Source of the DNA: Ignavibacteriales bacterium
GTDB taxonomy: Bacteria > Bacteroidota > Ignavibacteria > UBA10030
DNA: 64,000 bases
NCBI GenBank assembly: GCA_037446575.1
Contig: JBBIII010000003.1
Coordinates: 87,430-151,429 of the forward strand
Direction: 5' to 3'
This document shows, one piece after another, positions 8,281 to 52,810 of this stretch. Every line of letters begins with the position of its first letter. The first letter of the stretch is position 1. The position numbers and the translations under genes are program-made. The notes below the pieces were generated by a model. That model worked only from the letters and a program-made list of their open reading frames with translations, did not search any database and had not been told where the DNA came from.

Positions 8281-8307
8281 AAATAATTTCTCCTGTATAA
8301 AATAACA

Positions 8308-9933
8308 TTATTCCAAACGCGCTATTTTAGATGCTTCGGGAAATAATGTTAATGCTTTTTGGATTTGATTATCCATACCGAGCATAATCCCTATAGAACC
8401 TTCTAATCCATAAATCATTTGAGCAATTTGCGCTTTAAGACGCATGCGTAAAAAATCTATATCTTTTGAATATTCTTTTTCATCTATTTTTATGTCTTTA
8501 GATTCTATGAACTTTCGAAAATCTGACATCATTTCATTGCTTATTTGATATTTTGCTTTGAAAATTTCGTAATCCTTACTGTACTTTTCTCTTAAAGCAA
8601 AACCGGGTCCTTCCATAAACGTTTTAGTAAAATCATAAAAAAGATTGCGTCTCCAAATAGTCTGTACCAATCCTGTTACTTTTTCTGATTTAACTATATA
8701 ATCCGGAGTAATTCCACCACCTCCTAACACCTTGCGCCCACTGTTCGTTTTAAATATCGGAATTGATGTATCCGGCTTCACTTCAATATGTTCAAGGTTC
8801 TCCCCTTCTTGCTCTTCGCGTGTAAATGCTTCTATCTGATATTCGCTTTTATCTTTGCCTTGATATGGACGTTGTATTAAACGTCCGCTCGGCGTATAAT
8901 ATCTTGCAACTGTCAATCTAATTGCTGACCCATCTCTTAAAGGCCATTGCCTTTGAACTAAACCTTTGCCAAAGGAAGTCTCACCAACGACTAATCCTCT
9001 ATCCCAATCTTGAATAGCACCCGCTACTATTTCGCTTGCGCTCGCTGACGCATTGTTAATTAAAACAATTAACGGCAATTTTTCATATGCATCGCCGCTT
9101 CTTGCATTATACGATTCCTCAAATTCTACTTTCCGCGCTTTTGTATAAACTATTTTTTTCGGACTTACAACTGTACCGCCATCAAGAAACTTATCTGCCA
9201 TTCTTACTGCCTCTTCAAGATATCCACCGCCATTATCTCTTAAATCTAGAATTAACTTTTTCATCCCGTCTGCTTGAAGCTTTTGAAAAGCTTTTTCCAT
9301 TTCTGAATTTGTCGTCTCTTTAAATTGGTTAACCCTGATATATCCTATATCTTTTGTTATCATTAATGCCGCATCGATACTTACAAGTGCAATTTCATCG
9401 CGTATAATTTCAAAATCTAATATTTCTTTTACACTCGGGCGCACAATAGAAATTTTCACACGTGTTCCCTTTGGTCCACGAAGCGTTCGCATTACTTGTT
9501 GGTCTGTCCATTTTATTGCTGAAGTATCATTAATTTTTACTATCCTGTCGTTAGACAAAACTCCCATTCTTGCCGATGGACCGCCGGCAACCGGCTCTAC
9601 AACAGTAATTGTGTCGTTTAATATTCGAAAAGAAATTCCAACGCCTTCAAATTTTCCTTTAAAATCTTCAACAACTCTTTCGAATTGTCTGGGCGGTATA
9701 TAAACCGAATGGGGATCAAGTGTATTTAGCATCCCTACTATTGCCGATTCGGTAAGCTTGCCCGTATCCACTTCATCAACGTATGATTTTTCAGCCGCGC
9801 TTAATATATCTCCGAATTTTTTTATTTGCTCATAAATATTATCAGCGGAAATGAGCTTATTAATTCCCATTCCTGCTATCATACTAACAAGTATTAGCGC
9901 CGAAACAGTCGCCAACGAAAATCTTTTTTTCAT
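8308..9933 (-). CDS. ctpA: C-terminal processing peptidase (S41, Tsp/CtpA family)
   Basis: PDZ domain plus the S41 catalytic region (LIVLINNASASASEIVAGAIQDWDRGLVVGETSFGKG). Start placed at MKKRFSLATVSALILVSMIAG (signal peptide) rather than the track start at 10041. Confidence 0.8.
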   Translation of the reverse strand: MKKRFSLATVSALILVSMIAGMGINKLISADNIYEQIKKFGDILSAAEKSYVDEVDTGKLTESAIVGMLNTLDPHSVYIPPRQFERVVEDFKGKFEGVGISFRILNDTITVVEPVAGGPSARMGVLSNDRIVKINDTSAIKWTDQQVMRTLRGPKGTRVKISIVRPSVKEILDFEIIRDEIALVSIDAALMITKDIGYIRVNQFKETTNSEMEKAFQKLQADGMKKLILDLRDNGGGYLEEAVRMADKFLDGGTVVSPKKIVYTKARKVEFEESYNARSGDAYEKLPLIVLINNASASASEIVAGAIQDWDRGLVVGETSFGKGLVQRQWPLRDGSAIRLTVARYYTPSGRLIQRPYQGKDKSEYQIEAFTREEQEGENLEHIEVKPDTSIPIFKTNSGRKVLGGGGITPDYIVKSEKVTGLVQTIWRRNLFYDFTKTFMEGPGFALREKYSKDYEIFKAKYQISNEMMSDFRKFIESKDIKIDEKEYSKDIDFLRMRLKAQIAQMIYGLEGSIGIMLGMDNQIQKALTLFPEASKIARLE

Positions 9934-10291
9934 TAATCTTTCCTTTAGAAAAAAAACACTCTTCATATATTTGTTACATCTGTAAAATATAAATTTTTTT
10001 AAAACTTTTATATAAGGTACGTTAAATCGTTGCAAAATCAAATATCCTTATATCGCTGAAATTATATACGCAGAGGGTTTATGCTTGTTGCTTATTGCAT
10101 AATTTAATTATTGCGAGAGTCCTCTGAAATAATAATTTAATAATGGTAACCGCAAACTTTGGTTTGCTATCACATACTAAAAACCAAGCCTACAGCCTAT
10201 GTGAACTGCCATTTATCTTAGTTTTCAGAAGTTTCTACAAATAATAATTAAGATTTATATATTGTGCACTTTTAAATATTACCTAAATATT

Positions 10292-11815
10292 TTATTCAGG
10301 TTTCATTTGAGGAAATAAAATTACGTCGCGTATAGAATCTTGATTGGTAAGCAACATTGTTAATCTATCAATTCCTATACCTAATCCTGCAGTTGGAGGC
10401 ATGCCATATTCAAGTGCTCGTAAAAAATCTTCATCCAATACCTGAGCTTCTTCATCGCCGCGTTCAAGCAACTTCATTTGCTCCTCAAATCTTTCTCTCT
10501 GATCTATCGGGTCATTTAACTCAGAAAAAGCATTGCATATTTCTTTTCCATTGACAATCAATTCAAATCTTTCAACAAGTCCCTTTTCCGTTCTATGTTT
10601 TTTCGCTAGCGGCGACATTTCTATGGGATAATCAGTAATAAATGTCGGTTGAATTAAATACGGCTCAACTTTTTCTCCAAATATCTCATCAATAATGCCG
10701 CCTGTTCCAATTTTAGGTCCAATATCGATATTTAATTCTTTTGCTATTGTGCGCAAATCATTTTCATTCTTGTTTCTTAAATCTTTTCCAGTGTATTCCA
10801 TTATAACATCGAACATAGATATCTTTTTCCAAGGGGGTTTAAAATCAATTTCATTTTTGCCAACCGTTACTTTGTAAGACCCATTGATTTTAATCGCCAA
10901 TGTTGATATTAATTCTTCTACTAATCCCATCATCCATTTGTAGTCTTTATACGCAACGTATAGTTCCATCATTGTAAATTCTGGGTTGTGTGTGCGGTCC
11001 ATTCCCTCGTTTCTAAAATCTTTTGATATTTCATATACACCGTCGAATCCTCCTACAATTAAGCGTTTCAAATACAATTCATCTGCAATACGCAAAAATA
11101 ATTTCATCCCAAGCGTATTATGATATGTTATAAATGGACGTGCTGACGCTCCTCCATAGATAGGTTGAAGTACGGGAGTTTCAACCTCAATATAACCCCG
11201 TTCATCTAAAAAATTTCTAATAGTAGTTATTATTCTTGACCTCTTAAAAAATACCTCTCTAACTTCAGTGTTAACGATAAGATCAACATATCGCTGTCTA
11301 TATCGAAGCTCTTTATCAGAAAATGGATCGAATATAATCTTATTGCCATTCTCGTCAATTTTTTCTTTGACTATTGGAAGTGGCCTTAAAGATTTTGCAA
11401 GCAACACTATTGAATTAGCATGAATTGATACTTCTCCCATTTTAGTCCTAAAAACAAACCCATAAACTCCAATAATATCGCCAATATCTAATAATTTAAA
11501 AGATTCATAAAGCTCGCCAAGATCGTCACGCTTTAAATAGACCTGTATTTTACCTTGTATATCTTGTATATGGCAAAATGAAGCTTTACCCATTCTTCGA
11601 ATTGATACAATTCTACCCGCGATAGATACATTTCTTTTAGGCGCATCATCTTTAAAACCATCGATTATTTCTTTAGAATATGCGTCTCTCTCATACTCAT
11701 TAGGATATGGAGCAATTCCATTTTTTTTTAGTTGTTCTAATTCTTCACGTCTTCTTTGCATTAAAACGTTTAAATCCTCGTTCTTATTTTGTTCATCTAC
11801 AGTCAATTCGCTCAT
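10292..11815 (-). CDS. lysS: lysyl-tRNA synthetase, class II
   Basis: 507 aa. Class II motifs and the OB anticodon-binding N-terminal domain. Typical LysRS length. Confidence 0.9.
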
Positions 11816-11833: not shown

Positions 11834-13348
11834 CTATAATAAATTTAGTTTGTCTGCTTTGCATCTGCCATACAGAGCAGTTAATTCATATAATCTGTTA
11901 GCAGGGTCTGGACCTACTTGCTCCCAACTAAATCTCCATTCCCAATTTCCCTCTAAGGTGCTTGGGATGTTCATTCTTGCTTCGCTCCCTAAACCCATAA
12001 TATCTTGAAAGGGAATAATTGATATATCAGCCACCGAATTTGATGCAAGTTTGATTAAATCCCAATTAATTTCATGTCCATTTGTTTTACAATATCTTCT
12101 TACAAAATCTCGTTCATGTTCGGTTGCTTTTTCGTACCATCCACGCGTTGTATCGTTATCGTGCGTTCCCGTATATACAACGCAATTATGAATATAATTA
12201 TGAGGTAAATAAGCATTATCAGCACTACCGGAAAAAGCAAATTGCAGTACTTTCATACCGGGGTAATTAACTTTTTCGCGTAAATTATTTACTTCAGGCG
12301 TTATTATTCCCAAATCTTCCGCAATTATTGGCAAATCTCCAAGTTTTCTATTAACAGATTTAAAGAAATCTACGCCTGGTCCCATTTTCCAATTACCTTT
12401 AATCGCATTGTTTTCATTAGCCGGAATTTCCCAATACGATTCAAAACCTCTAAAATGATCAATTCGAATAATATCAAACAAACTAAATAACCTTTTAAAT
12501 CTTTCATACCACCATTGATATTTTTTTTCCTTTATCGCTTGCCAATTGTATAATGGATTTCCCCATCGTTGTCCGGTTTTGCTAAAATAATCTGGCGGCA
12601 CGCCTGCAACAACTGTCGGATTTCCTGCAGAATCAAGATAGAAAAGTTCTTGATTCTTCCACACATCTGTGCTATGATGAGCAACAAAGATCGGCATATC
12701 GCCAATTAGCTTGATTCCCTTGCTATTTGCATAAGCTTTAAGTCTTTTCCATTGTCGATCAAAAATCCATTGAGCGAATTTTTGTATAAGAATTTGTTCC
12801 GCTAATTCCTTTTCCAATTCAGCTATTACTTTTTGCTTCAACATTTTGACATCGGAATTCCACACTGTCCAATCGATATAAGGATTTTGAATTGTTAGTG
12901 CTTGGAAAAGCGCATAATCATCTAACCAATATTTTTCCTTTTGACAAAATGCATTATAATCGTTTTTTAAATCATCATTTGAATTAGATAGAAAATTTCT
13001 TCCGGCTTTTTCAATTTTATCTAAATAAAATGATGTAACCTTTTTATAATCTATTTGATTTGGTGAAGTATTTGTTGTTAGGATTATATCTTTTTTTTCT
13101 AATAAATCAAGGGCAACTAACTCATTGAGATCAATAAGAAAAGGATTACCAGCAAAAGCAGAAGTAGACATGTATGGAGAATTGCCTACTCCGATGGGTC
13201 CAATTGGAAGCATCTGCCAAAAGGATTGCCCTGCAACAGATAACCAATCAACAAAATGATAAGAAGACGCTCCAAAATTGCCTATTCCAAATTCTCCGGG
13301 AAGTGATGTCGGATGAAGTAGTATTCCGCTCGACCGATTAAATCTCAT
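11834..13348 (-). CDS. malQ: 4-alpha-glucanotransferase (amylomaltase, GH77)
   Basis: 504 aa. N-terminal GILLHPTSLPG...GIG and the catalytic IRIDHFRGF motif. Confidence 0.85.
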   Translation of the reverse strand: MRFNRSSGILLHPTSLPGEFGIGNFGASSYHFVDWLSVAGQSFWQMLPIGPIGVGNSPYMSTSAFAGNPFLIDLNELVALDLLEKKDIILTTNTSPNQIDYKKVTSFYLDKIEKAGRNFLSNSNDDLKNDYNAFCQKEKYWLDDYALFQALTIQNPYIDWTVWNSDVKMLKQKVIAELEKELAEQILIQKFAQWIFDRQWKRLKAYANSKGIKLIGDMPIFVAHHSTDVWKNQELFYLDSAGNPTVVAGVPPDYFSKTGQRWGNPLYNWQAIKEKKYQWWYERFKRLFSLFDIIRIDHFRGFESYWEIPANENNAIKGNWKMGPGVDFFKSVNRKLGDLPIIAEDLGIITPEVNNLREKVNYPGMKVLQFAFSGSADNAYLPHNYIHNCVVYTGTHDNDTTRGWYEKATEHERDFVRRYCKTNGHEINWDLIKLASNSVADISIIPFQDIMGLGSEARMNIPSTLEGNWEWRFSWEQVGPDPANRLYELTALYGRCKADKLNLL

Positions 13349-14111
13349 GTAATTTCTCTTCTTTATCCAGACCTGTTAATCTCATTAAATGATTTATTTC
13401 CTGTCTTGTCAAGAAGCGCCAACTCCCTCGAGGTACGCCTAAAGGCGTTAATCCTGCAAACAAGACTCTATCGAGCTGGCGAACATCGAATCCAATTGAT
13501 TCAAATATTCTTCTGACTTCTCTATTCTTTCCCTCATAAATAGTCAACAAAACCTTTTTTCCTTTAGAACCTTTAATTGGTTCTACTGATTGAACATTTG
13601 CAATACCATCTTCAAGTTTAATGCCCTTGCGAATTCTTTTTAATTCTTCGCTCTTAATTTGTCGGTCAAGCGTTACACGATACATTTTTTCTATTTCATA
13701 TTTTGGATGTATAAGAGCATTAGCAAGCTCTCCATCATTTGTAAAGAGCAATACTCCGGTTGTGTTTCTATCCAACCTGCCAATCGGAAATACTCTTTTT
13801 TTAATTTTCACGTACTTCATTACTGTATCACGACCTTTTTCATCGTTCATAGTCGTAATAGTATCTTTAGGTTTGTTGAAAAGTATATAAATTTTCTTTT
13901 CTTCAACATTCACTATTCTGTTGCTCACTGTTACAGTATCTTTTTCTAATCGAACTTGCGCGCCCAATTCTGTAATAGTTTTGCCGTTAATTTTGACAAC
14001 GCCTGATAGAATCAATTCGTCGTTTTTTCTACGCGATCCTACGCCCGCCATTGCTAAATAACGATTTAGACGAATAGTTTCTTTATGAAGCGGCTTATTT
14101 TTTCTTTCCAT
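13338..14111 (-). CDS. rluB: 23S rRNA pseudouridine synthase (RsuA/RluB family) with S4 domain
   Basis: S4 RNA-binding N-terminus (RLNRYLAMAGVGSRR) and the catalytic FPIGRLDRNTTGVLLFTNDG motif. The stop overlaps the malQ start. Confidence 0.8.
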   Translation of the reverse strand: MERKNKPLHKETIRLNRYLAMAGVGSRRKNDELILSGVVKINGKTITELGAQVRLEKDTVTVSNRIVNVEEKKIYILFNKPKDTITTMNDEKGRDTVMKYVKIKKRVFPIGRLDRNTTGVLLFTNDGELANALIHPKYEIEKMYRVTLDRQIKSEELKRIRKGIKLEDGIANVQSVEPIKGSKGKKVLLTIYEGKNREVRRIFESIGFDVRQLDRVLFAGLTPLGVPRGSWRFLTRQEINHLMRLTGLDKEEKLHEI

Positions 14112-15220
14112 GCTTGCCAGCGATTTGGATGTTTAGAATCTAATTTTTTTGACGTATCGAATTGAGAATTTTCTATATTTTCTGTAGAAGAATTAATTAT
14201 TTCTACTTCTTTATTCGGTAGTTCATTCGCAGTTCTTTCTACGTTTTCTGATTTTTCAACGAGGCCGGCTTTCTCGTTATTTGCAGATTGACTTGTTTCT
14301 ACTCCAATTTCACTCGGGATATCTTGCTCGGCAGTTCTAATATCTAATCCGTCAGTACCTGTTACCTCAAGCTCAGATTTTTCGACTTCATGATTGAATT
14401 TAATTTTTTCTTGTCCGGCTTGTTCGATTAATTTTTGTTCTTCGCTTGGCAAGATTTTAATTTGCCTTATTTTTTTAATCTGGTGTAGTTCAACTTCTTT
14501 TTGTTCTAATTCAGATTTTTTCTTTGGAATATGCGGTAACCTCGATTTGAAATTTTCTTCTTCTTTTTGAAGTTTTTCGGCCGCAGTTTGGGCTTCGAGC
14601 ATCCTTCTTTCTATTTCGTATTGGCTTTCGCCAAGAATTTCTTCAATTTCTCTTGGCTTAGGTAAATCTGTTATAGTATTCAATCCGAAATGTTTCAAGA
14701 ATTCTTTAGTTGTCCCATACAACAACGGACGGCCTACGCTTTCAGCTCTGCCTGTTACTGTAATTAATTCTTTTTCTAATAAAGTCTTTAATACATAATC
14801 ACAATTAACACCACGGATGTTTTCTACTTCCGTTTTTGTAACGGGCTGTTTATACGCAATAATAGCGAGCGTTTCTATGCCAGATTGAGATAGTTTTCGC
14901 CTGCTTTGTTCTTTGAATAATTTGCCAAGCCATTCTGCATAAATTGAAAGAGTTGCAAATTGATAGCCGCCTGCAATCTCTATAATTCTATAAGGTTTTT
15001 CTGATTTTTCATAACTTTTATTTAAGTTAGAAATAATTTGCTTTATTTCTTCAAGCTCGATATGACGAGTAGAATTGTTGTGATTATCTGCTTGATATAT
15101 TGACTTAATTTGATTTAAAGAAAGCGGTTCCTTGGCTGCAAAAATTAATGCTTCTATCAACGCATTTAATGTTGACGGAATTTTCAGTTCAACTTTTTCG
15201 ACTTTTACTTCTTCTTGCAT
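14066..15220 (-). CDS. scpB: segregation and condensation protein B with long C-terminal extension
   Basis: The N-terminal ~190 aa are ScpB winged-helix domains (LIEALIFAAKEPLSL...GGYQFAT...RGVNCDYVLKTLLEKELI). An additional ~190 aa E/K-rich low-complexity tail follows. Confidence 0.75.
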   Translation of the reverse strand: MQEEVKVEKVELKIPSTLNALIEALIFAAKEPLSLNQIKSIYQADNHNNSTRHIELEEIKQIISNLNKSYEKSEKPYRIIEIAGGYQFATLSIYAEWLGKLFKEQSRRKLSQSGIETLAIIAYKQPVTKTEVENIRGVNCDYVLKTLLEKELITVTGRAESVGRPLLYGTTKEFLKHFGLNTITDLPKPREIEEILGESQYEIERRMLEAQTAAEKLQKEEENFKSRLPHIPKKKSELEQKEVELHQIKKIRQIKILPSEEQKLIEQAGQEKIKFNHEVEKSELEVTGTDGLDIRTAEQDIPSEIGVETSQSANNEKAGLVEKSENVERTANELPNKEVEIINSSTENIENSQFDTSKKLDSKHPNRWQAWKEKISRFIKKLFV

Positions 15221-15939
15221 TAGTTGACTCTTCGCATAATTGATAGTTCGCCAAAAGGTTTAATTTGTCTGATAATTAATTTTTTTGCTCTAATTACTTC
15301 CAATAAAGCAAGAAATGTTACAACCATACGAATCTTTTCAGTAAAGTCTTTTATCAAATCAAAAAAAGTCGCTTCTGAACGTTTCGAAAAGAAATCTTCT
15401 ATATATAAAATTTGTTCTTCTATTGTTACATTAATTTTTTCAATTTCATGGAAGAATTTTTTAGGCATTCGTTCCATTGCATATTTAAACGACGCAATTA
15501 AATCAAAAAATGTTACGTCTCTAATAATATCTCCACCTGTTTCATCTTCGATAACATGTTCATCAGCAGAATTATATCCACGATAAAATACTTTCATCTG
15601 CTGTTCTTCATAATTTTTCATTTGCAAAGACATTTCTTTAAATCTTTTGTATTCGACCAATCGTTGAACTAAATTTGCTCTTGGATCTACTTCTTCTTGT
15701 TCGCCTGGTTCGGGTGGCAAAAGCATCTTCACCTTAATTTGCATTAGCTCTGCCGCCATTACTAAAAATTCGCCCGCTATTTCTAAGTCGAGCTGTTGCA
15801 AAAAATGCAAATAGTCTAAAAATTCTTTAGTAATTCGAGCTATTGGAATATCATAAATATCTAACTCATCGCGTTTGATAAAGAAGAGCAATAAGTCTAA
15901 TGGACCTTCAAAATCGTGCAATTTGATTGTGTACATCAA
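15220..15939 (-). CDS. scpA: segregation and condensation protein A
   Basis: 239 aa. ScpA family N-terminus (FEGPLDLLLFFIKRDELDIYDIPIARIT). Abuts scpB and trpS. Confidence 0.8.
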   Translation of the reverse strand: MMYTIKLHDFEGPLDLLLFFIKRDELDIYDIPIARITKEFLDYLHFLQQLDLEIAGEFLVMAAELMQIKVKMLLPPEPGEQEEVDPRANLVQRLVEYKRFKEMSLQMKNYEEQQMKVFYRGYNSADEHVIEDETGGDIIRDVTFFDLIASFKYAMERMPKKFFHEIEKINVTIEEQILYIEDFFSKRSEATFFDLIKDFTEKIRMVVTFLALLEVIRAKKLIIRQIKPFGELSIMRRVN

Positions 15940-18186: not shown

Positions 18187-18678
18187 TCAATTCATAAATA
18201 AATATGGTTTCCAATTTTCATCCACAATACCTACAAAATGCCTAATAAACATAACATGGTTGGGACGAATTGGTTTGCGGAGTAGTTTCATATGCGCATC
18301 ATGAGGAGTTCTATCCCCTTTTTTGTTATTACAATGAACACAAGCCGCTACAAGGTTATCCCACGATTCGGCGCCGCCTTTGGCTTTTGGAATAACATGG
18401 TCCACAGTTAAATTTGTCTCTGTTTTACCGCAATATTGACACTGATGCCCATCGCGACGCAAAACATTTTTTCGCGAAAGTATAATTTTTTTATAGGGAA
18501 CTCGAACGAAGATAGAAAGTCTTACAATGCTTGGGTATGGCATTGTAGTAGATACCGAACGAATTATTTTTCCATCACATGCTGCAATCAACTCTGCTTT
18601 GCCTAAATAAAGAAGAATAATAGCTTTTTTTACATTACAAATGCTTAATGGCTCATAATCGTGGTTGAGCACAAGCAC
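18187..18678 (-). CDS. HNH endonuclease family protein
   Basis: 163 aa. HNH motif HQCQYCGKTETNLTVDHVIPKAKGG...WDNLVAACVHCNNKKGDR. GTG start. Confidence 0.75.
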   Translation of the reverse strand: MLVLNHDYEPLSICNVKKAIILLYLGKAELIAACDGKIIRSVSTTMPYPSIVRLSIFVRVPYKKIILSRKNVLRRDGHQCQYCGKTETNLTVDHVIPKAKGGAESWDNLVAACVHCNNKKGDRTPHDAHMKLLRKPIRPNHVMFIRHFVGIVDENWKPYLFMN

Positions 18679-44012: not shown

Positions 44013-44606
44013 ATGCATGTAATTGTTGGACTTGGAAATCCTGGAAACTTATACAGAGATAATCGACATAATATAGGATTCCTTGTTCTTGATGAATTAG
44101 CAAATTATTTTAACATAGTTTTTAAACCTGGCAAAGGTAATTATTGGTTGACACACTGTTCTTTGAATGAAAATGAAGCGATACTTTTGAAACCTACAAC
44201 TTATATAAATGAAAGCGGCATTGCTGTATTCGAATATATCGAACAAAACAATATTCCAATTGAAAAAATTCTTGTTGTTTGCGATGATTTTCAGTTACCC
44301 TTAGGAAAAATTCGGATTCGCCGCAACGGTTCTGATGGAGGCCACAACGGTTTAGCTTCTATTATTTATCATTTACAAACAGAAGAAATTCCAAGGTTGC
44401 GCTGTGGAATAGCATCTCAGAAGATGCCGACAGAAAAAAGCCGGCTGAAGGATTTTGTTTTAGAAAATTTTGAAAATTTAGAAATACCGATGCTTAAGCG
44501 AATGATATTACGAGCAAGAGATGCCTGCATAACAAGTTTAAAAGATGGTATTGAATCAGCAATGAATCGATTTAATACTGATCCTGAAGAAAATTTTATT
44601 AATTAA
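44013..44606 (+). CDS. pth: peptidyl-tRNA hydrolase
   Basis: VIVGLGNPGNLYRDNRHNIGF plus the catalytic His and the GGHNG motif. Confidence 0.9.
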   Translation: MHVIVGLGNPGNLYRDNRHNIGFLVLDELANYFNIVFKPGKGNYWLTHCSLNENEAILLKPTTYINESGIAVFEYIEQNNIPIEKILVVCDDFQLPLGKIRIRRNGSDGGHNGLASIIYHLQTEEIPRLRCGIASQKMPTEKSRLKDFVLENFENLEIPMLKRMILRARDACITSLKDGIESAMNRFNTDPEENFIN

Positions 44607-44610
44607 CCCT

Positions 44611-44640
44611 GCCCGTTAATTTGAAACGGGCCATTATTTA
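44611..44640 (+). other. stem-loop between pth and rpsF (weak terminator/attenuator candidate)
   Basis: GCCCGTT-aatttga-AACGGGC (7 bp stem) followed by cattattta, a weak U-tract. Confidence 0.3.
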
Positions 44641-44663
44641 ACTAAAGTCCAAAGGGAAAATAT

Positions 44664-45104
44664 ATGTCAAAAAACCAAAAATTCTACGAGGTTACGTTTA
44701 TAATAAATGCCAATTTAGAAGATACTCAAATCGACGCTATTATTGAAAAAGTGAAAGAAATCATCACAAAGAATAACGGCGAGATAAGTGAATTAACCAA
44801 ATGGGGGCGCAAACGATTTGCTTATCCAATTAAAAAGAAAAATAACGGTTTCTATGTTTTATGCTTGATAAAATGCTCAGGTGAACTTATTTCAAAATTA
44901 GAACGAGCATTTGTGCTGGAAGATAATATCATTCGGTTTTTAATGATCGCATTGGATAAAAAATCTCTTCAAACACGTATTTCTGGCAATGATCTGCTAA
45001 AACAAACAGCCGCTCCAACAACAAGCGGTTCACCGTTATTAACAGATATATCTGATAATGATTCTCTTGAACCAATCAAATCGCCAACTCAAAGTGAATT
45101 CTAA
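44664..45104 (+). CDS. rpsF: 30S ribosomal protein S6
   Basis: YEVTFIINANLEDTQIDAIIEKVKEII...WGRKRFAYPI. C-terminal extension present. Confidence 0.9.
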   Translation: MSKNQKFYEVTFIINANLEDTQIDAIIEKVKEIITKNNGEISELTKWGRKRFAYPIKKKNNGFYVLCLIKCSGELISKLERAFVLEDNIIRFLMIALDKKSLQTRISGNDLLKQTAAPTTSGSPLLTDISDNDSLEPIKSPTQSEF

Positions 45105-45122
45105 AAAGTGGAAGGAATAAAA

Positions 45123-45446
45123 ATGATACAGCAAAAAAAATATAATCCAAAGTATAAACAAACAGGCAGTACAAATCGTAGAGATACATCTGGACCGGCT
45201 CAGCGTTCAGCAAACAAACAACAATTACAGCGTAAAAAACGTTCTTGCAGATTTTGTGATTCAAAAGAAATCTATATCGATTATAAAAATGAGAAACGGC
45301 TTCAACGTTGCGTATCTGAACAAGGTAGGATTATACCCCGCCGAATAACAGGCACCTGCGCGCGTCATCAACGACAACTTGTTACTGCAATAAAAAGAGC
45401 GCGCCATTTGGCATTATTGTCGTTTGTGAACGACGCCGTGAGCTAA
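45123..45446 (+). CDS. rpsR: 30S ribosomal protein S18
   Basis: [69 protein letters not shown] Shine-Dalgarno precedes ATG 45123, so the track GTG at 45108 lies within the RBS. Confidence 0.85.
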
Positions 45447-45483
45447 ACAAATTAGAATGTGATATTGAATAAAGGAAAAGCTT

Positions 45484-45927
45484 ATGAAATTAATTTTAAG
45501 GAAAGATTTTGAAAAACTTGGCAAGACGGGCGACATTGTTGCAGCAAAAGACGGATATGCTCGCAATTACCTTATTCCAAGAGGAATTGCTTATGAAGCA
45601 ACTGAAGGATTCTTAAGACAACTTGAAGAAGAAAGAAAACAACATCAAAAACATTTGGAAAGAGAACGCAAACAAGCAGAAAAGCTTGCTGAGAAATTAG
45701 AAAAGACTTCTATAACAATAAAAATGAAAGTGGGCGAAGAAGATAAGCTTTTTGGTTCTGTTACATCACAAATGATTGCTGATTCGCTTGCTGAAAAGGA
45801 ATTTACTATCGACAAAAGGCACATTGAATTAGAAGAACCATTAAAAATGCTTGGTATTTATGATATTCCAATTAAACTGGCGGGGGGCATAACGGCTAAA
45901 CTTAAAGTATGGATAGTTAGAGAATAA
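45484..45927 (+). CDS. rplI: 50S ribosomal protein L9
   Basis: [40 protein letters not shown]. Confidence 0.9.
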
Positions 45928-45940
45928 ACTCAAATCAATT

Positions 45941-45973
45941 AAAAAAGGCGACTAAAAGTCGCCTTTTTTTTCT
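45941..45973 (+). terminator. rho-independent terminator of the rpsF-rpsR-rplI operon
   Basis: AAAAAAGGCGACUaaaaAGUCGCCUUUUUUUU. Perfect 7 bp stem, 4 nt loop, eight U. Confidence 0.7.
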
Positions 45974-45977
45974 CACA

Positions 45978-46132
45978 AACACCACTGCAATTTTAGGCAA
46001 CGATTTAAGTACGCTCCCTGATTATCCGGCAGAAATCCGTGCGCCACAAGGCACGACATCGGGTGTAAGCGGATTTCAAATTCATTTTGGAAGCACAGAA
46101 ATCAATACGCCTTGCGATAGGGAGTTTCGTTT
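45978..46132 (+). pseudogene. fragment of a 2-oxoacid:ferredoxin oxidoreductase alpha subunit (KorA-like gamma-domain motif), no start codon
   Basis: The frame with codon starts at positions divisible by 3 reads [43 protein letters not shown]. This matches the conserved [23 protein letters not shown] motif of large-type KorA/OFOR alpha subunits. It runs into the terminator and has no initiation codon. Confidence 0.45.
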
Positions 46133-46555
46133 GTGGAAATTTACCAAAACTGCAATGTTTTCAACGATGGGGCTTTTTCTCAGTTTACAGAAAAAGAAAT
46201 AAAAGACAACAACTTAATTTTTATTGAACACGGAAAACCATTAATCTTCGGAAAAGAAAAAGATAAAGGGATTAAACTAAACGGTTTTACTCCAGAAATT
46301 GTTTTCTTAAAAGATGGAAAATATTCGGTGAATGATCTTCTTGTGCATGACAAGACAGACACTACTCTATCGTTTATACTTTCTGATATGACATACAATT
46401 CTCGCCATCCACGCCCTGTTGGAGTTTTTTTGGCGATCTCTAAACCGACGTACGAAGAAGAAATGAAGCATCAGATTAATTTTTCTATTGAAAAAAGAGG
46501 AAAGGGAGACGTGCAAAAACTTTTTAATTCTGGTGATACTTGGACAATTCAATAA
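46133..46555 (+). pseudogene. C-terminal fragment of a 2-oxoacid:ferredoxin oxidoreductase beta subunit (KorB-like), lacking the TPP-binding domain
   Basis: GTG-initiated 140 aa [16 protein letters not shown]...LVHDKTDTTLSFILS...PRPVGVF...SKPTYEEE resembles the last ~140 aa of actinobacterial-type KorB. The ~200 aa N-terminal catalytic part is absent. Confidence 0.45.
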
Positions 46556-46637
46556 TTATTTAATATCTTGGATTAAGCGGGTGTGATAGAAAAATAAATC
46601 GCGCCTTTTTTTATATAACAAAGTTTAAAGGTATAAA

Positions 46638-47624
46638 TTGGCGCTCCAATTCGAGACATTTAAAACCGTAATTGAAGCAAATCTGCGTTTTATTCTCACA
46701 ACACATATCAGTCCCGATGGCGATGGTTTAGGCGCAGAAGTTGCTTTTGCGCATTATTTAAACAAAATCGGAAAGCAAGTAATAATACTAAATAACGATC
46801 CAACTCCTTCCAATTATCAATTCTTAAATGACATCTATCCTATCAATCAATTTGATTTTTCAGAGCACGCATCCTTAATTGAAGATGCAGAAGTTATAGT
46901 TGTTTTAGATGCAAACAGTTTGCAAAGATTAGGATTTATGAAAGCTTCAATCTTTGCAAGTCAAGCTGTTAAAGTATGTATAGATCATCATCCGGAGCCG
47001 GAACAATTTGCAGATATCAATATGATAGATGAAACCACAACGGCAACTGCTGAAATTTTATATCATCTAATAAATTATCTTTCGGGACGCGTAATAGATA
47101 AGGAAATTGCAATTGCTTTATATACGGCAATAATGACAGATACGGGCTCATTTCGTTATCCAAAAACTGACCCTGAGGCACATAAAATTACGGCTCATTT
47201 AATTCAAATGGGCGCCGACCCTGTGACAATTTATGAGCAGGTCTACGAGCAAGGAAATATAAATCGCCTGCAACTACTGGGCTTAGCCCTTTCGCATATT
47301 AAACTTGTTTATGATGGAAAGCTTTCTTATATGACGATAACGAAAGAAATGTTTTTAAATACTGAAACTACCGATGCAGATACCGAGAATTTCGTTACAT
47401 ATACTCTTTCTATTAGCGGTGTTCAGATTGGGATAATGTTCACCGAATTAGATGGTTTAATAAAAATAAATTTACGTTCTAAAGGAGATATTTGGGTAAA
47501 TGAACTTGCTAAAGAATTTGGGGGGAATGGCCATAAAAATGCCGCTGGCATTAGACTCCCTCACGCTAAATTAAGTGAGACGATAGAGCAAATTCTTGAG
47601 CATGCAAGCGCTTATATTACTTAG
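46638..47624 (+). CDS. nrnA: DHH-family bifunctional oligoribonuclease / pAp phosphatase NrnA
   Basis: DHH motif (ILTTHISPDGDGLGAEVA) and DHHA1 GGGH motif (GGNGHKNAAG). TTG start with an AAAGG Shine-Dalgarno. Confidence 0.8.
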   Translation: MALQFETFKTVIEANLRFILTTHISPDGDGLGAEVAFAHYLNKIGKQVIILNNDPTPSNYQFLNDIYPINQFDFSEHASLIEDAEVIVVLDANSLQRLGFMKASIFASQAVKVCIDHHPEPEQFADINMIDETTTATAEILYHLINYLSGRVIDKEIAIALYTAIMTDTGSFRYPKTDPEAHKITAHLIQMGADPVTIYEQVYEQGNINRLQLLGLALSHIKLVYDGKLSYMTITKEMFLNTETTDADTENFVTYTLSISGVQIGIMFTELDGLIKINLRSKGDIWVNELAKEFGGNGHKNAAGIRLPHAKLSETIEQILEHASAYIT

Positions 47625-47696: not shown

Positions 47697-48743
47697 CTAT
47701 TCATACCAATCGAGTATTCTATAAAAACTAAGATTTGGTACTCTACGCGCTTTTTGTATAGCGGCGCTACTATATTTGATATCTGCTTCACCATTTATTT
47801 TCACATCTACAGTATTATTTATATTTCCAGCTATTATAAGTCCCCCAATAATATTAGCTTGCCCCGTTGTTTGAAAATCTAATTTTGTATCAACACCATA
47901 TACTATTACTAGTCCACGCCAATCGAATTGTCCTGTAAACTTTACTGTGCCTCCGCCATAAATTACTAATATGCCATAACCTGTAACTTTTGGCATATTT
48001 ACTCCATACGTTGTGTCACCCATAGGATTACAAGTAACAATAGTCGGTTCAGTTGCAGTACCAAATGTAATGTTATTAGGGGGTTGATTATTTTTATCGT
48101 AAGAAAATGAAGCCGCTTTTATATATTCATTTAGATAATCTTGAGGATCTTCTTGATTCGGATTTATTTTAATTATAGGATTACCCTCGATTCCGCTTAG
48201 ACTATTTCTTTGATTAGCAATTTTTATTGAATCATTAGTATTCTTGACTGTAAAGCCGGGGACATCGCCGCTGCCGACCCGTGTAGAACCATCTTCTGTA
48301 TAATTACGCCCATCAACTTTTAGTTTTTTATTGCCCGGTTGAAAATCTCCAATATTTGTATTAATTCCCACTGCTCCTGCCGCTTCTGGTATTGGTCTTG
48401 GCGTCCACAATAATTTTACGTTCATCGTATAAGTAGTATCCTGATATCTACCCCTTGAAATAATAGTTAACGTGTCAGCCACGCTTGATGTATCAACGCG
48501 GTAACTTCCATCGTTAAAATTGCATACTAATGCATTGTAACTAGGATTGCGTACAATACCATCACTTGCAATAAATCTGAGTACTCTATTTATACCCATT
48601 CGTGCAAGATTTCTTGCGTTAGAATATTGAAAATAAGTTGAATGTGTTTCTACCAACAAATTAGAATATGTATGTATGCTATTGCCTATATAACCGAATG
48701 CAACAGCCAAAGCTAAAACAAGCAACAACGCTGAACGTCCCAT
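47697..48743 (-). CDS. pseudopilin-like protein, PilX/GspK-like (cassette B, gene 3)
   Basis: 348 aa. MG|RSALLLVLALAVAFGYIG signal-anchor, then the helix YSNARNLARMGINRVL (compare PilX/GspK A-x3-A-x-G-L). Gly-rich beta repeats and a terminal FYRILDWYE. Paralog of 50346..51632. Confidence 0.4.
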   Translation of the reverse strand: MGRSALLLVLALAVAFGYIGNSIHTYSNLLVETHSTYFQYSNARNLARMGINRVLRFIASDGIVRNPSYNALVCNFNDGSYRVDTSSVADTLTIISRGRYQDTTYTMNVKLLWTPRPIPEAAGAVGINTNIGDFQPGNKKLKVDGRNYTEDGSTRVGSGDVPGFTVKNTNDSIKIANQRNSLSGIEGNPIIKINPNQEDPQDYLNEYIKAASFSYDKNNQPPNNITFGTATEPTIVTCNPMGDTTYGVNMPKVTGYGILVIYGGGTVKFTGQFDWRGLVIVYGVDTKLDFQTTGQANIIGGLIIAGNINNTVDVKINGEADIKYSSAAIQKARRVPNLSFYRILDWYE

Positions 48744-48754
48744 AATAATACCTT

Positions 48755-49345
48755 TTAATTAGTACGCCATAAATTTCGTGGAATTAATAATTTTTGCCAA
48801 CCGATTGCAGAATACGTCGTGTCAATTAATGAAATTACCGGCTCTGGCCCCATAGTGCTAAATCTTACAAAAACAGACCTTATTTTATCTAATGAATCGT
48901 CAGGCGTCAGTATCTCTGCATTATTAATGTTATAATATTGCATTCTAAAGGATGTTAATCCGTAATTTAATCTTTGTGGAGGGTCATTATCATATCTTCT
49001 ATAAATTGGAAAATCATTTGGATTCGGAGTATTAACAGATTCTATTGCTCTACCGATATAGTATCTCACTACGGGAGTATCTATTTTATTGTTATTAATA
49101 TACCCTACTCTAAATCGGATACTATCCTTGTCAGCAAAGAAAATCGTTTGCCCACGCACTCTATAGCCCATTTTCAAAAAATCATTTTCGATCTGTCGAG
49201 CGAGTTCCACTGCATTGCGCTGAGTTATTACTGTGTAAGTATTCTGGTATTGTGTACTGCTCATTGTAACATGCACGCGTGCAATTGTTAATGCAAGAAT
49301 CCCAAAAATAATTCCTGCCATGATATAATCAAAAATTACATTCAT
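48755..49345 (-). CDS. pseudopilin-like protein, PilW/GspJ-like (cassette B, gene 2)
   Basis: 196 aa. Hydrophobic N-terminus VIFDYIMAGIIFGILALTIA, then ELARQIENDFLKMGYRVRG (compare PilW ENGRFAL..L...L.kAGYR). YYIG and YGLTSFR motifs are shared with 51656..52285. Confidence 0.45.
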   Translation of the reverse strand: MNVIFDYIMAGIIFGILALTIARVHVTMSSTQYQNTYTVITQRNAVELARQIENDFLKMGYRVRGQTIFFADKDSIRFRVGYINNNKIDTPVVRYYIGRAIESVNTPNPNDFPIYRRYDNDPPQRLNYGLTSFRMQYYNINNAEILTPDDSLDKIRSVFVRFSTMGPEPVISLIDTTYSAIGWQKLLIPRNLWRTN

Positions 49346-49353
49346 ACTAATCT

Positions 49354-49956
49354 CTAATAATATCTTCTATAGATAGCAATATCTGACAATTTATAGATTA
49401 TTATCTCTCCTTGTAAATTTTTTGGCAAGCTGGGATTTTCGATGTGAACATCTATCCTTTTTTGAAAAGTTCGCGATGCAGATGTAGTATTCGGGTTTTC
49501 TTCTGCAATATAGGTAATTGTACATGAGACTTTAAACCATTCTAGTCGATCATCCCAAACCCATCGTTTGTACCACCTGTGGTAGTCATCAACATCATCG
49601 AATTTACGTTGAGATTGGAAAATATAAACGCGAGATGAGTCAATTATGCCATTAGCTCCGCTAATTCCTGTAATTGTTTCATTTACACCATCCGCACCAA
49701 AAAATTGGGATAGCGTCATCCCGGACGCATTCATTACTCGTCTTGTAGTGCCATCTGGAAGCGGCGTAACATTTTCGTCAAAATATCTATTGATTATTTC
49801 ATCCAACAGCGCTTGTCCGATAGAAAGGGCATTTAGGTTGGCTTCCATCTCCAATCCCGTAGTCGCTGTGCCTATCATTGTTGCGTTAATTGCTAACGTA
49901 ACTGTAGCAAGAAGCGCAAATGCCGCAATTACAAGCATTGTTTGACCAGTATTCAT
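49354..49956 (-). CDS. pseudopilin-like protein, PilV/GspI-like (cassette B, gene 1)
   Basis: 200 aa. MNTG|QTMLVIAAFALLATVTLAINA N-terminus. Acidic FDDVDDY block. C-terminal ASRTFQKRIDV shared with 52289..52810. Confidence 0.35.
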   Translation of the reverse strand: MNTGQTMLVIAAFALLATVTLAINATMIGTATTGLEMEANLNALSIGQALLDEIINRYFDENVTPLPDGTTRRVMNASGMTLSQFFGADGVNETITGISGANGIIDSSRVYIFQSQRKFDDVDDYHRWYKRWVWDDRLEWFKVSCTITYIAEENPNTTSASRTFQKRIDVHIENPSLPKNLQGEIIIYKLSDIAIYRRYY

Positions 49957-50345
49957 ATATTTTCTTTATGCCTAAATTCTATATACTAGTGTAAAAATAT
50001 TCAAAATAATAAACTCGCAACAATCAAACTTTTTATATTACACTAAAACATTGAGGAATTGCATAAATCATTCCACAAATATATTTGAATATTAAACTTG
50101 ATTAAACTTGATTTTCCTTATTTTATAATTAGTACACTAGAAAATTCTACAAAACTCGGAGTGTCAGTTGCTTCTGAAATATTAAACAATGGAAACCACA
50201 GATTTTAGCTCTCGGCTAAAAATTAAAACATCATCCGTGGTATGTGTCTGCGGATATTTATCCGATTTTTAAGAAGTCTCTTTTAGCTGATTTCGTGAGT
50301 TCCTTAACCACCTCAGTTTATATACTGGTTTATTTTTTTAAATTT

Positions 50346-51632
50346 TTACCTATAGTCTTCCCAAACGTCAGCATATTTTGAAGTAATGCGACTATACCAA
50401 GAAAGGATTCTAAATCTTTCTCTTTGTGGATAACCGGGCGGGAAATCATTTGCCATTCTGTTATCAAACCTATAGTTCTTATGGAATCCATCCGAAATAG
50501 TACCACCAGATATTACACCTACTGGCTCCCTATTTCTTTGCTGGATACCGCCTAATATAGTTAATTGACCGCAATATCCTCTTGTACTATAATCTACAGC
50601 CTTTACACCACCGTTACGACACATGATTGTGGCATGGATAGTAACGCCTCTTGAAGCAACTCTATTATTTGAATTATTTGATATGAACACATTATTTTCA
50701 GCTACAATGCCTAACATATCTGTACTTAACGGATTAACAAGTGGATTGCTGTTATATACAACTGATGAGTCAATATATACATTTCCTTTTGCAAGTCCCG
50801 AACTGCCGGTTGCACATATAGTCATTCTACCAGATACTGTTCCTTTTATATAAAGATTGCCATTTTGTACATGCAAAATACCGTTAGTGGCAAAATTTGA
50901 TATTGAAGTAAATATTGTCGGTGTACCGCCCCAACTTCCCTGGCGCACAACTACATTTCCATTAGCTAAAAATTGTAAGTAAATGTCTGTGTTAGAATAT
51001 ACTCTTCCGGCGCTTGATGCTGCCGTTGTAAGAGGATTGATGTTAGCGGGCAGACTTATATCGACTCCTTCTCGGTAAGTATCAAAAAATTGTGGGTGAT
51101 AATTACTACCGCCATTATTTTGTAATCCATTTCTTGATGTTACCCTTCCCATAAAAACTGGTGAGCCAATTATGCTTATCCTTTGCTGTGTATGCAGTGG
51201 TCCCCAACAAGTGTCGCCTGTTGTCCAATTAATATTATTTTCAATTTCGCTGTAAAATGCATACTCTGAAAATCTTCCAATTGTTAGGACTACAGTAGTA
51301 GATTCTTTTGCCGCTCCATAAATACCTTGAGTACGAATGGTAACTCTTCTTGCTGAATTAACTATCGTTCGGGCAAGACTCCATTCCAAAGAGCCAGTTT
51401 CTCCGCTGTTATCAATTGATATGCTATTAGTAGTTGGCGTCCAGCCAGTATCTATTGATATCATACCAACCGCATAATTAAGACCGCTCGCTGTAACGTT
51501 ACGAGCTCTTTGATACTCTAAATATTTTACATAATTTCTAAATGATTGATTTGTTATTTTGTTAAGGTTTATTCCCAAAAAAACAAAAATAAAATTGAAC
51601 CCTATTACCATTAACAAAGTATTCTTACCCAT
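50346..51632 (-). CDS. pseudopilin-like protein, PilX/GspK-like (cassette A, gene 3)
   Basis: 428 aa. MG|KNTLLMVIGFNFIFVFLG anchor, then the helix YQRARNVTASGLNYAVGMI. Gly-repeat beta-rich C-domain (GNLYIKG, GNVYIDSS, GQLTILGGI) and terminal FRILSWY. Strong AAGGAG Shine-Dalgarno. Confidence 0.4.
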   Translation of the reverse strand: MGKNTLLMVIGFNFIFVFLGINLNKITNQSFRNYVKYLEYQRARNVTASGLNYAVGMISIDTGWTPTTNSISIDNSGETGSLEWSLARTIVNSARRVTIRTQGIYGAAKESTTVVLTIGRFSEYAFYSEIENNINWTTGDTCWGPLHTQQRISIIGSPVFMGRVTSRNGLQNNGGSNYHPQFFDTYREGVDISLPANINPLTTAASSAGRVYSNTDIYLQFLANGNVVVRQGSWGGTPTIFTSISNFATNGILHVQNGNLYIKGTVSGRMTICATGSSGLAKGNVYIDSSVVYNSNPLVNPLSTDMLGIVAENNVFISNNSNNRVASRGVTIHATIMCRNGGVKAVDYSTRGYCGQLTILGGIQQRNREPVGVISGGTISDGFHKNYRFDNRMANDFPPGYPQRERFRILSWYSRITSKYADVWEDYR

Positions 51633-51655
51633 ATTTTATTACTCCTTATATCTTA

Positions 51656-52285
51656 TTAACTATTTTGCATCATTTTAGATACAAGGCGCATTTGTCTCCA
51701 ATATACTTTATAATGCGTCGTATCATCCATGAAATCTTGATGAGGAACTGGATTTTCTAAACTAACTGATAATTGAATAATATGTATTCCACCAGGATTT
51801 GGAACTGGAAATTGTCTAATTTCTCTTTCAGTGGCATTAAAATATTTAAATCTAAATTCAGTCAGTCCTAAATAGATTCTTATAGGTAAGCCGGTATTAA
51901 TTTGCCTGTAGAGATACCGATCTCGTGGATTTGGTGTGCTCAACAATTCTGATGTTGGACCAATATAATAAGTAATTGTATCCATTTTCCCATCGCTTCT
52001 ACCATGCTGATCGACAATATCTGTTCGAAAACTAATTCTTCCCGTGTCAGCAAATACTATAGCTTCTCTTAGATTCACATTATTCGCATTAGAAGAATAT
52101 CCTATTCGCGAAAAATCATCTTCTATTATGTTAACGAGAGCCGTTAAGTTAGTTTGCAGATTGAAGCTTGAATAGTAAGCGGTATATCTTTCCATCGAAC
52201 TTTGATTGAGTCTCAAAGCCATCAAGAAAATTAACCCGCCAACAACAAAAGATCCTATTATATCAATTAATGATGAAGTGCCCAT
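51656..52285 (-). CDS. pseudopilin-like protein, PilW/GspJ-like (cassette A, gene 2)
   Basis: 209 aa. MG|TSSLIDIIGSFVVGGLIFLMAL (LIDII resembles LIELM of pilins). Then IEDDFSRIGYSS, YYIGPTSELLSTPNPRDRYLYRQ and LGLTEFRFKYFN. Confidence 0.45.
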   Translation of the reverse strand: MGTSSLIDIIGSFVVGGLIFLMALRLNQSSMERYTAYYSSFNLQTNLTALVNIIEDDFSRIGYSSNANNVNLREAIVFADTGRISFRTDIVDQHGRSDGKMDTITYYIGPTSELLSTPNPRDRYLYRQINTGLPIRIYLGLTEFRFKYFNATEREIRQFPVPNPGGIHIIQLSVSLENPVPHQDFMDDTTHYKVYWRQMRLVSKMMQNS

Positions 52286-52288
52286 AAT

Positions 52289-52810
52289 TTATGGCCTAAA
52301 ATAACTACATATATAAGATATTTTAATTGTATCGCCGCCTGCAAAACCTACATTAGGATCTCCCCTCATCGATCCGGTTGTGAAAACGTCAATTTTTTTA
52401 AAAAATGTTCTTGCCGTGCTTCTAATATTTGGATCTGCAGTGGTTACATAATAAACATTTGCAAATGTTCTGAAAACATCCACGCCAACTACGCTATCTC
52501 TCGCAATTGAGCCATTGAAGTCATCGAAATCATCAAATGTCGAATCAACATGAGCAATTTCTCCGGCATCTACACCAAGCACAGAGGATAAATCGTTAAC
52601 AGTAGTGGCTCCAGAAGTTGTTAGAATTTCATCAAATAATTTTGCCGCCGCTAATTCAATTCGCGATGAGGCAACTGATACAGCAGCAATACCGATTTCA
52701 GTTTGTCGTAATATAGCACCATAATGTATATGACTTCGATTTACCGTAAGCACAGTTGTACCAAGTAGCGCAAGCGCTCCGGTAACAAGAAGCATTTGTC
52801 CCGTATTCAT
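52289..52810 (-). CDS. pseudopilin-like protein, PilV/GspI-like (cassette A, gene 1)
   Basis: 173 aa. MNTG|QMLLVTGALALLGTTVLTVN. A-rich helix. FDDFDDF block. C-terminal STARTFFKKIDV. Confidence 0.35.
   Translation of the reverse strand: MNTGQMLLVTGALALLGTTVLTVNRSHIHYGAILRQTEIGIAAVSVASSRIELAAAKLFDEILTTSGATTVNDLSSVLGVDAGEIAHVDSTFDDFDDFNGSIARDSVVGVDVFRTFANVYYVTTADPNIRSTARTFFKKIDVFTTGSMRGDPNVGFAGGDTIKISYICSYFRP

Follow-up and report, generated by a model that had tools for sequence, protein, structure and literature searches.

The interval between the terminator of the ribosomal protein gene rplI and the nrnA-like gene in the stretch of 64,000 nt analysed here (the window) is very probably a non-functional remnant of korAB, the genes for a 2-oxoglutarate/2-oxoacid:ferredoxin oxidoreductase of the alpha-beta type, destroyed by two deletions. 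A preliminary description had regarded this interval as gene-decay debris rather than a functional gene, and homology, synteny, the loss of the catalytic domains and relaxed constraint all support that view. The features of the locus, all on the forward strand, are as follows.

45484..45927, forward strand: rplI (ribosomal protein L9), an ORF of 147 aa, the last gene of rpsF-rpsR-rplI and the left synteny anchor.
45941..45971, forward strand: rplI intrinsic terminator, with a hairpin at 45941-45969, the GC core GGCGAC/GUCGCC and an 8-T run at 45964-45971.
45970..45975, forward strand: junction of deletion 1, where the terminator tail TTTTTTCT abuts korA codon 31/32.
45975..46118, forward strand: korA island, codons 32-79, found by tblastn and TIGR03710.
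46118..46119, forward strand: junction of deletion 2, where korA codon 79 abuts korB codon 206.
46119..46555, forward strand: korB tail, codons 206-350 plus the stop codon, found by tblastn and from KorB homologues.
46579..46612, forward strand: degenerate korB terminator, with a stem GGGUGUGAU/AUCGCGCCU containing G-U pairs, followed by a 7-T run.
46638..47624, forward strand: nrnA-like DHH/DHHA1 phosphoesterase (Pfam DHH 2.4e-18, DHHA1 1.7e-10), the right synteny anchor.

When the intact KorA (612 aa) of the related genome L012 was compared with the window by tblastn, residues 32-79 matched positions 45975-46118 with 97.9% identity (47/48, E 5.7e-24). The NCBIfam model TIGR03710 (2-oxoacid:acceptor oxidoreductase alpha) matched the same piece at profile positions 20-64 of 561 with an E value of 8.8e-6, the score of 24.6 bits lying far under the curated 482.75. 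The island is situated inside the N-terminal PF01558 ‘POR’ (gamma-like) domain, which covers residues 21-208 of the intact protein, and its frame contains no upstream ATG, GTG or TTG start. A full-length KorA has about 560-620 aa, the POR, POR_N (TPP pyrimidine-binding) and PFOR_II domains (PF01558, PF01855 and PF17147) and a start codon; 48 codons are present here. G78 of the conserved TPGD motif is replaced by Cys (TGC) in the window, and the conspecific assembly L004 keeps Gly (GGA).

The corresponding search with L012 KorB (350 aa) placed residues 207-350 at 46121-46552 with 73.6% identity (E 1.4e-71). In a protein database search, the tail retrieved 568 KorB proteins, many of them carrying PF02775, with a best non-self identity of 74%; nearly all named homologues were 2-oxoglutarate/2-oxoacid:ferredoxin oxidoreductase beta subunits, and many were named korB. 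The korB frame, the second one, runs from 46121 to the end ...SGDTWTIQ* with the stop codon at 46553-46555, and an in-frame TAG (46118-46120) closes it upstream. In gene calls the ORF begins with GTG 46133 (former Val211), which yields 140 aa and has a Shine-Dalgarno-like GGGAG 8 nt upstream. By similarity and by its orthologous position directly upstream of nrnA the tail belongs to KorB, and it lacks the TPP domain and the N-terminal Cys motifs of that subunit. The WCPGCG, GIGCSS and GDGDG motifs seen in L012 KorB are within the part deleted from the window; in line with OFOR structures, the cysteines of WCPGCG/GIGCS are probable [4Fe-4S] cluster ligands and the GDG...NN motif is probably TPP-binding. 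Only the last ~7 residues of PF02775 (KorB 66-213) remain in the tail, and this model gave no match on the korB fragment; for both short fragments Pfam searches gave no meaningful match, the fragments being too short or outside the modelled domains. Searching the PDB sequences with the korB tail alone produced chance-level matches to response regulators only. Residues 223-350 of the Ignavibacteriota-type KorB (~128 aa, window 46169-46552) are well conserved across hundreds of KorB proteins; there is no Pfam model for this region and no sequence-detectable counterpart in solved OFOR structures, where the beta subunits align to residues 22-230 only.

Codon-position identities to L012 amounted to 46, 48 and 19 of 48 for positions 1, 2 and 3 of the korA island and to 108, 126 and 61 of 139 for those of the korB tail. 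Since positions 1 and 2 are conserved and position 3 is saturated, both pieces are former coding sequence in these frames, and to judge by this pattern they were coding in precisely these frames during nearly the whole of their evolution.

The significant similarity of both fragments to KorA and KorB bears out most of what the preliminary description had read from the letters, namely a KorA-like frame directly after the rplI terminator that matches the N-domain segment near TPGD (tblastn and TIGR03710 agree) and lacks a start codon, and, in another frame, a GTG-started 140-aa ORF (46133..46555) corresponding to the C-terminal ~140 residues of KorB, in agreement with tblastn and the 568 homologues. 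Some details have to be corrected. The KorA piece had been said to comprise ~45 codons and to overlap the terminator T-run; it measures 48 codons, and KorA homology begins 1-4 nt past the 8-T run (45964-71). The ~15 nt supposed to separate the two pieces are already KorB sequence (K206-G-V-S-F), so that there is no gap.

The preliminary description had further suggested looking for an intact operon at this position in related genomes. A scan of species-representative genomes returned 80 loci, and in at least 21 related Ignavibacteriota genomes a full-size korAB interval is located between the rplI terminator and nrnA, in the order prs-rplY-pth-rpsF-rpsR-rplI-terminator-korA(~612 aa)-korB(~350 aa)-nrnA. 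The window has the same gene order, save for the full-size korAB interval. Synteny was found at loci L007, L010-L015, L017, L020, L021, L023, L024 and L026-L031, in L005 with a frameshift-split korAB, and in L009 from rpsF onwards, where the contig starts. ORF lengths in ten loci were 611-640 aa for korA (9/10) and 349-352 aa for korB (6/10), and in several relatives korA measures 612 aa from the first ATG. Pfam domains of the intact proteins are POR (KorA 21-208), POR_N (KorA 252-469), PFOR_II (KorA 511-579) and TPP_enzyme_C (KorB 66-213). Across seven flanking proteins the window shares 70-74% identity with the closest clade (L007, L010, L011, L012 and L014), and the wider neighbourhood of L007 shares with the window a Fer4 gene, DUF362, bioY, sucD and an amidase gene.

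Both anchors are in place. The rplI gene is identical in the conspecific assemblies L001 and L002, where its product matches Pfam Ribosomal_L9_N/C, and it is 61-77% identical to the rplI of relatives in which korA is the next gene; on the other side, nrnA lies directly 3' of korB in the relatives. RNA folding of the rplI terminator gave -16.5 kcal/mol (z -8.5), with 0/200 shuffles equally good, and a terminator scan agreed. DNA comparison located this element at the same position in relatives, ahead of korA, as AAAAGGCAGC...GCTGCCTTTTTTCT, and by its position we regard the window terminator as homologous to the pre-korA terminator of the relatives. An Rfam search of 44600-47000 at E<=1 yielded sub-threshold matches only, all of them from the terminator hairpin, and no RNA family.

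The relatives also differ from one another around this locus. Most of the more distant loci L005, L021 and L023-L031 have about 500-660 nt between rpsF and rpsR (~240 nt in L027) and about 950 nt between rplI and korA; in L005 these two gaps harbour ssb and DsbD_TM genes, both of which are absent from the window and from the closest clade. In L007, the closest relative, the space between bioY and prs (3302-3880) contains two small GIY-YIG ORFs of 82 aa each, which are absent at the equivalent place in the window. One Bacteroidota MAG, L058, has two korAB pairs ~5.4 kb apart (7647-10423 and 13050-15835), and paralogous enzyme copies thus exist in the wider group. Within the 64-kb window, tblastn with KorA and KorB gave chance matches only as far as another OFOR is concerned; the one at 14201-14365 lies in ScpB.

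Breakpoints were mapped by DNA comparison with eight relatives, and sizes are given in L012 coordinates or relative to L007/L011/L012. Deletion 1 comprises about 212-217 nt missing relative to L007/L011/L012, consisting of the 121-126 nt intergenic/promoter region and korA codons 1-31 including the start codon. In the relatives the terminator is followed by 121-126 nt and then by the korA ATG, whereas the terminator tail of the window continues directly with codon 31/32. A TTC/CT microhomology at 45970-45975, with an overlap of at most TTC, leaves the precise breakpoint ambiguous. This loss of ~215 nt from the korA 5' region appears to be a second event, separate from the internal deletion, and adds to the account given by the preliminary description.

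Deletion 2 removed 2,220 nt (KorA 80-612 plus KorB 1-205; L012 coordinates 7767-9986). At the junction, KorA codon 79 (GAT) meets the last two bases of KorB codon 206 (aAG), which shifts the frame, and there are no filler bases. The window reads ...CCT TGC GAT/AG GGA GTT TCG TTT GTG GAA (the slash marks the junction), and the relatives read ...CCN GGN GAT/TCA TGT... on the korA side and ...AAG GGA ACT TCG TTT GTC GAA... on the korB side; no microhomology at this junction could be deduced from the comparison with relatives. Deletion 2 covers POR_N (KorA 252-469), PFOR_II (KorA 511-579) and almost the whole of TPP_enzyme_C (KorB 66-213), and, from a reading of the L012 sequence, it also removed all but one of the likely Fe-S cysteines. 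The internal deletion proposed in the preliminary description is therefore real, its size being 2,220 nt in L012 coordinates instead of about 2.5 kb, and the Pfam domain positions inside it confirm the proposed loss of both TPP-binding catalytic cores. What is left of korAB is 581 of about 2,890 nt (20%). Relative to the intact orthologues at the same locus the genes are truncated as well as disrupted in frame, the marks by which a pseudogene is recognized.

The source of the window is a metagenome-assembled genome, and in such genomes repeats or strain mixtures can give local mis-joins, so that the arrangement might be an assembly or binning artefact in which reads were collapsed or chimeric and the real genome holds an intact korAB. 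The exact 140-aa product and two near-identical variants of it were detected across four further assemblies of the same species:

L001: Logan SRR11582157, 99.97% identity to the window.
L002: NCBI GCA_037444545.1 (MAG), 99.29% identity to the window.
L003: Logan SRR11582151, 99.40% identity to the window.
L004: Logan SRR11582139, 99.05% identity to the window.

Both junctions are present in L001-L004, each of which has its own SNPs. Identical junctions in five assemblies, from at least 3 different sequencing runs and two pipelines, speak against an artefact, as do the SNPs by which the assemblies differ (0.03-0.95%), some of them inside the remnant. Two independent precise junctions would need the identical mis-assembly each time, and no intact allele closer than 74-75% identity was found among 5.8 billion proteins. 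Mis-assembly is effectively excluded, and we consider the chance that an intact korAB lies hidden behind these junctions to be negligible.

The five conspecific sequences were further used to compare the constraint on the remnant with that on its surroundings. Ten variable sites were counted in the 581 nt of the remnant, 1 synonymous and 9 nonsynonymous, while the 16 housekeeping genes in the shared 20 kb had 40 synonymous and 27 nonsynonymous variable sites in 13,506 nt. The synonymous to nonsynonymous ratios differed (Fisher p=0.0048), a result that rests on the 10 remnant sites, and the density of variable sites was 3.5-fold higher in the remnant (10/581 versus 67/13,506, p=0.0012). Four changed codons were found in columns that are invariant or nearly so among 22-23 intact orthologues, the damaging changes being R53L and G78C in KorA and, in KorB, the replacement of an invariant Glu by Lys and of a His shared by 21 of 23 orthologues by Tyr. 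Different strains bear different lesions. In the window, L001, L002 and L003, the invariant Gly of TPGD has become Cys, the invariant Glu has become Lys, and His occupies a Leu/Met position; in L004, Leu replaces the invariant Arg of AEIRAP, Tyr the His of 21/23 orthologues and Ser the Pro of 20/23. Thus, within the species, constraint on the remnant is relaxed, as seen at these 10 sites.

The comparison between species gave a weak signal, with a small excess of change on the window branch at most. Of 48 invariant KorB columns the window departs from three, 22/23 intact orthologues from 0-1 and one orthologue from 3. In pairwise identity the tail (71-74%) keeps pace with the flanking genes (70-74%), without clear acceleration, and decay is therefore slight. 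Together with the codon-position pattern, this weak signal points to a recent inactivation, one that would be older than the ~1% strain divergence and young compared with the split from the nearest sampled relatives.

It may still be asked if ORF 46133-46555 is a functional standalone protein in which the C-terminal domain of KorB was reused, e.g. as a binding partner of another OFOR or of ferredoxin. The 145-codon KorB frame is uninterrupted in each of the five assemblies, and its GTG start with the GGGAG 8 nt upstream would permit synthesis of a 140-aa peptide, given read-through of the rplI terminator. This Shine-Dalgarno-like GGGAG beside junction 2 arose by a change of former codon 208 from ACT to GTT. 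An AlphaFold2 model of the ORF was moderately confident, with a mean pLDDT of 80 and residues 31-120 mostly above 85, but it had no significant structural neighbour, the best Foldseek match in the PDB being 6n2n_B with E 0.46, and thus offers no evidence of an independent fold. Against a protein under selection, all intraspecies variable sites in the korB-tail ORF are nonsynonymous (6/6), several of them in invariant or near-invariant KorB columns. The strong terminator directly upstream argues, as far as can be judged from sequence, for low transcription of the remnant, and a promoter scan, in which the Ignavibacteriota promoter type is not represented, detected 7 consensus-like sites where shuffles predicted 8.2. 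Finally, every short ‘tail’ checked in the databases was a contig-edge truncation or a frameshift split. On balance, a standalone function of the ORF is very improbable, and the non-functional korAB remnant remains our reading.

A conserved standalone KorB-tail family, which would have spoken against the remnant proposed in the preliminary description, was rejected after inspection of P0014, P0080, P0024 and P0026; the short tails checked are all artefactual gene calls. P0014 (156 aa) and P0080 (153 aa) lie on long contigs on which korA and korB are chopped into several ORFs, and are frameshift-split korB genes in long-read MAGs, a pattern typical of indel errors. P0024 and P0026 (both 140 aa, ‘MEIYQ...’) are located 35-37 nt from a contig edge; since the frame is open upstream (…HKGTAFMEIYQ), an internal Met was taken as start, and these proteins are contig-edge truncations. 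In large protein databases, gene calls cut short by contig edges or frameshifts can therefore give the appearance of a ‘standalone domain family’. Split or truncated korA/korB genes were seen at L005 (5577-8471), L006 (5492-8462), L007 (10001-10826) and in korA of L014, in MAGs from ENA ERZ250394xx-ERZ250396xx and in some MFD assemblies. Indel error in long-read assemblies is the most likely reason for the split korAB in such MAGs, and a source of spurious short ‘KorB tail’ proteins.

The region just before nrnA deserves separate consideration. Alignment of nine relatives revealed a conserved hairpin, GGGTGTGG...CCACACC-TTTTTT, in the korB-nrnA spacer, which is degenerate in the window. The degenerate terminator (46579-46612) folds weakly (z -1.4), and 15/200 shuffles were equally good. 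Window positions 46535-46612 and the spacers of L007-L014 share the arrangement of a conserved hairpin plus T run just before nrnA, and the conserved elements at the korB end and in the spacer could be the korB terminator and/or regulatory signals of nrnA. The remnant might accordingly be dead as a gene while its 3' part persists for an nrnA promoter or leader in the last korB codons and the spacer, which would add to the main explanation and not replace it. A promoter-like TGGACA-N17-TATCTT is found at 46541-46569, the closest clade shows hardly any variation in the DNA ACTTGGACAATTCAATAAT-TTTTTATATCTT, even past the korB stop codon, and nrnA starts ~25 nt after the spacer hairpin. Promoter sites are, however, no commoner than in shuffles (7 versus 8.2 expected, in a scan that does not cover the Ignavibacteriota promoter type), and such signals would account for the last ~20 nt of korB only, not for the 437 nt of the tail, nor for the 144-nt korA island. 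We regard the persistence of the 3' part for nrnA as unlikely. The narrower proposition that, from the deletion onwards, the KorB tail was maintained in the role of a small expressed protein or of a promoter-bearing nrnA leader has only a slim chance of being correct; if true, it would mean that a new gene or regulatory element was born from operon debris.

For the decayed korAB, the following course of events may be proposed. The ancestor of this Ignavibacteriota species would have had korAB at the same position as its relatives, and the genes would have become dispensable in the lineage. Deletion 1 (~215 nt) would have taken away the promoter region, the ribosome-binding site, the start codon and the first 31 korA codons, and deletion 2 (2,220 nt) would have brought codon 79 of korA up against codon 206 of korB with a shift of frame. 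There remain 48 korA codons, untranslatable on their own, and the last 145 korB codons, a remnant devoid of both thiamine-pyrophosphate-binding domains and of most Fe-S ligands. The flanking elements, namely the rplI terminator at the 5' end and the degenerate korB terminator with nrnA at the 3' end, would have stayed put, and the leftovers would now drift neutrally. Ignavibacterium album has KFOR plus 2-oxoglutarate dehydrogenase, PFOR, VOR and IOR (PMC3362086), and since KFOR occurs there together with alternative enzymes, dispensability of korAB is plausible.

The finding has some practical consequences. Public assemblies list the 140-aa ORF as a gene, and it stands without a name in the protein collection; its annotation should read korB pseudogene fragment. 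The rplI-linked 2-oxoglutarate:ferredoxin oxidoreductase of the relatives should not be assumed for this species, and the loss of korAB bears on any inferred anaerobic or reductive TCA branch in the lineage.

Two further regions of the window were recorded in the course of the analysis. On the reverse strand at 47697-52810, a six-ORF cluster is hypervariable between the conspecific assemblies, especially at 48000-48500, 50000-51500 and 52000-52500, with 13-23 differences per 500 nt versus 0-7 elsewhere. Five of the six ORFs have no Pfam match and the sixth (50346-51632) has a faint DUF4900 match only; this sixth ORF contains 41 nonsynonymous and 9 synonymous variable sites. Three ORFs of the cluster have N-terminal hydrophobic segments and a pilin-like look. 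The variability suggests a surface structure that undergoes diversifying selection or recombination. The second region, on the reverse strand at 18187-18678, is a small ORF for an HNH endonuclease (163 aa, PF01844 5e-18) between a pectate-lyase-family gene and chorismate synthase.

The systems closest to the korAB locus are the two-subunit KorAB/OGOR enzymes, represented by Magnetococcus marinus MmOGOR (PDB 6N2N/6N2O) and by the KFOR of Ignavibacterium album, IALB_1501-1502. The intact L012 KorA (612 aa) matches 6n2n_A over residues 12-607 (E 2.2e-73) and the intact L012 KorB (350 aa) matches 6n2n_B over residues 22-222 (E 6.4e-60), the M. marinus OGOR being the nearest solved enzyme; past residue 222 the Ignavibacteriota-type beta tail has no sequence match in Pfam or PDB. 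Sequence similarity and conserved position identify the fragments in the window as parts of an orthologous pair of this type. Unlike those enzymes, they comprise alpha residues 32-79 and beta residues 206-350 only, in different frames, and have no korA start codon. As the POR_N, PFOR_II and TPP-binding domains are lacking, the remnant is not an enzyme. Bacterial deletion pseudogenes are remnants of the deletional bias that acts after selection has been lost, and the korAB remnant resembles them in being truncated, in having lost its start codon and its intact frame, in the neutral-looking substitutions between strains and in a parent gene that is identified by synteny. It is not unusual among them, the one notable feature being the internal korA island of 144 nt between two deletions. 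Altogether, the korAB remnant is an ordinary recent gene loss, a feature of a well-known kind that opens no new biological question.
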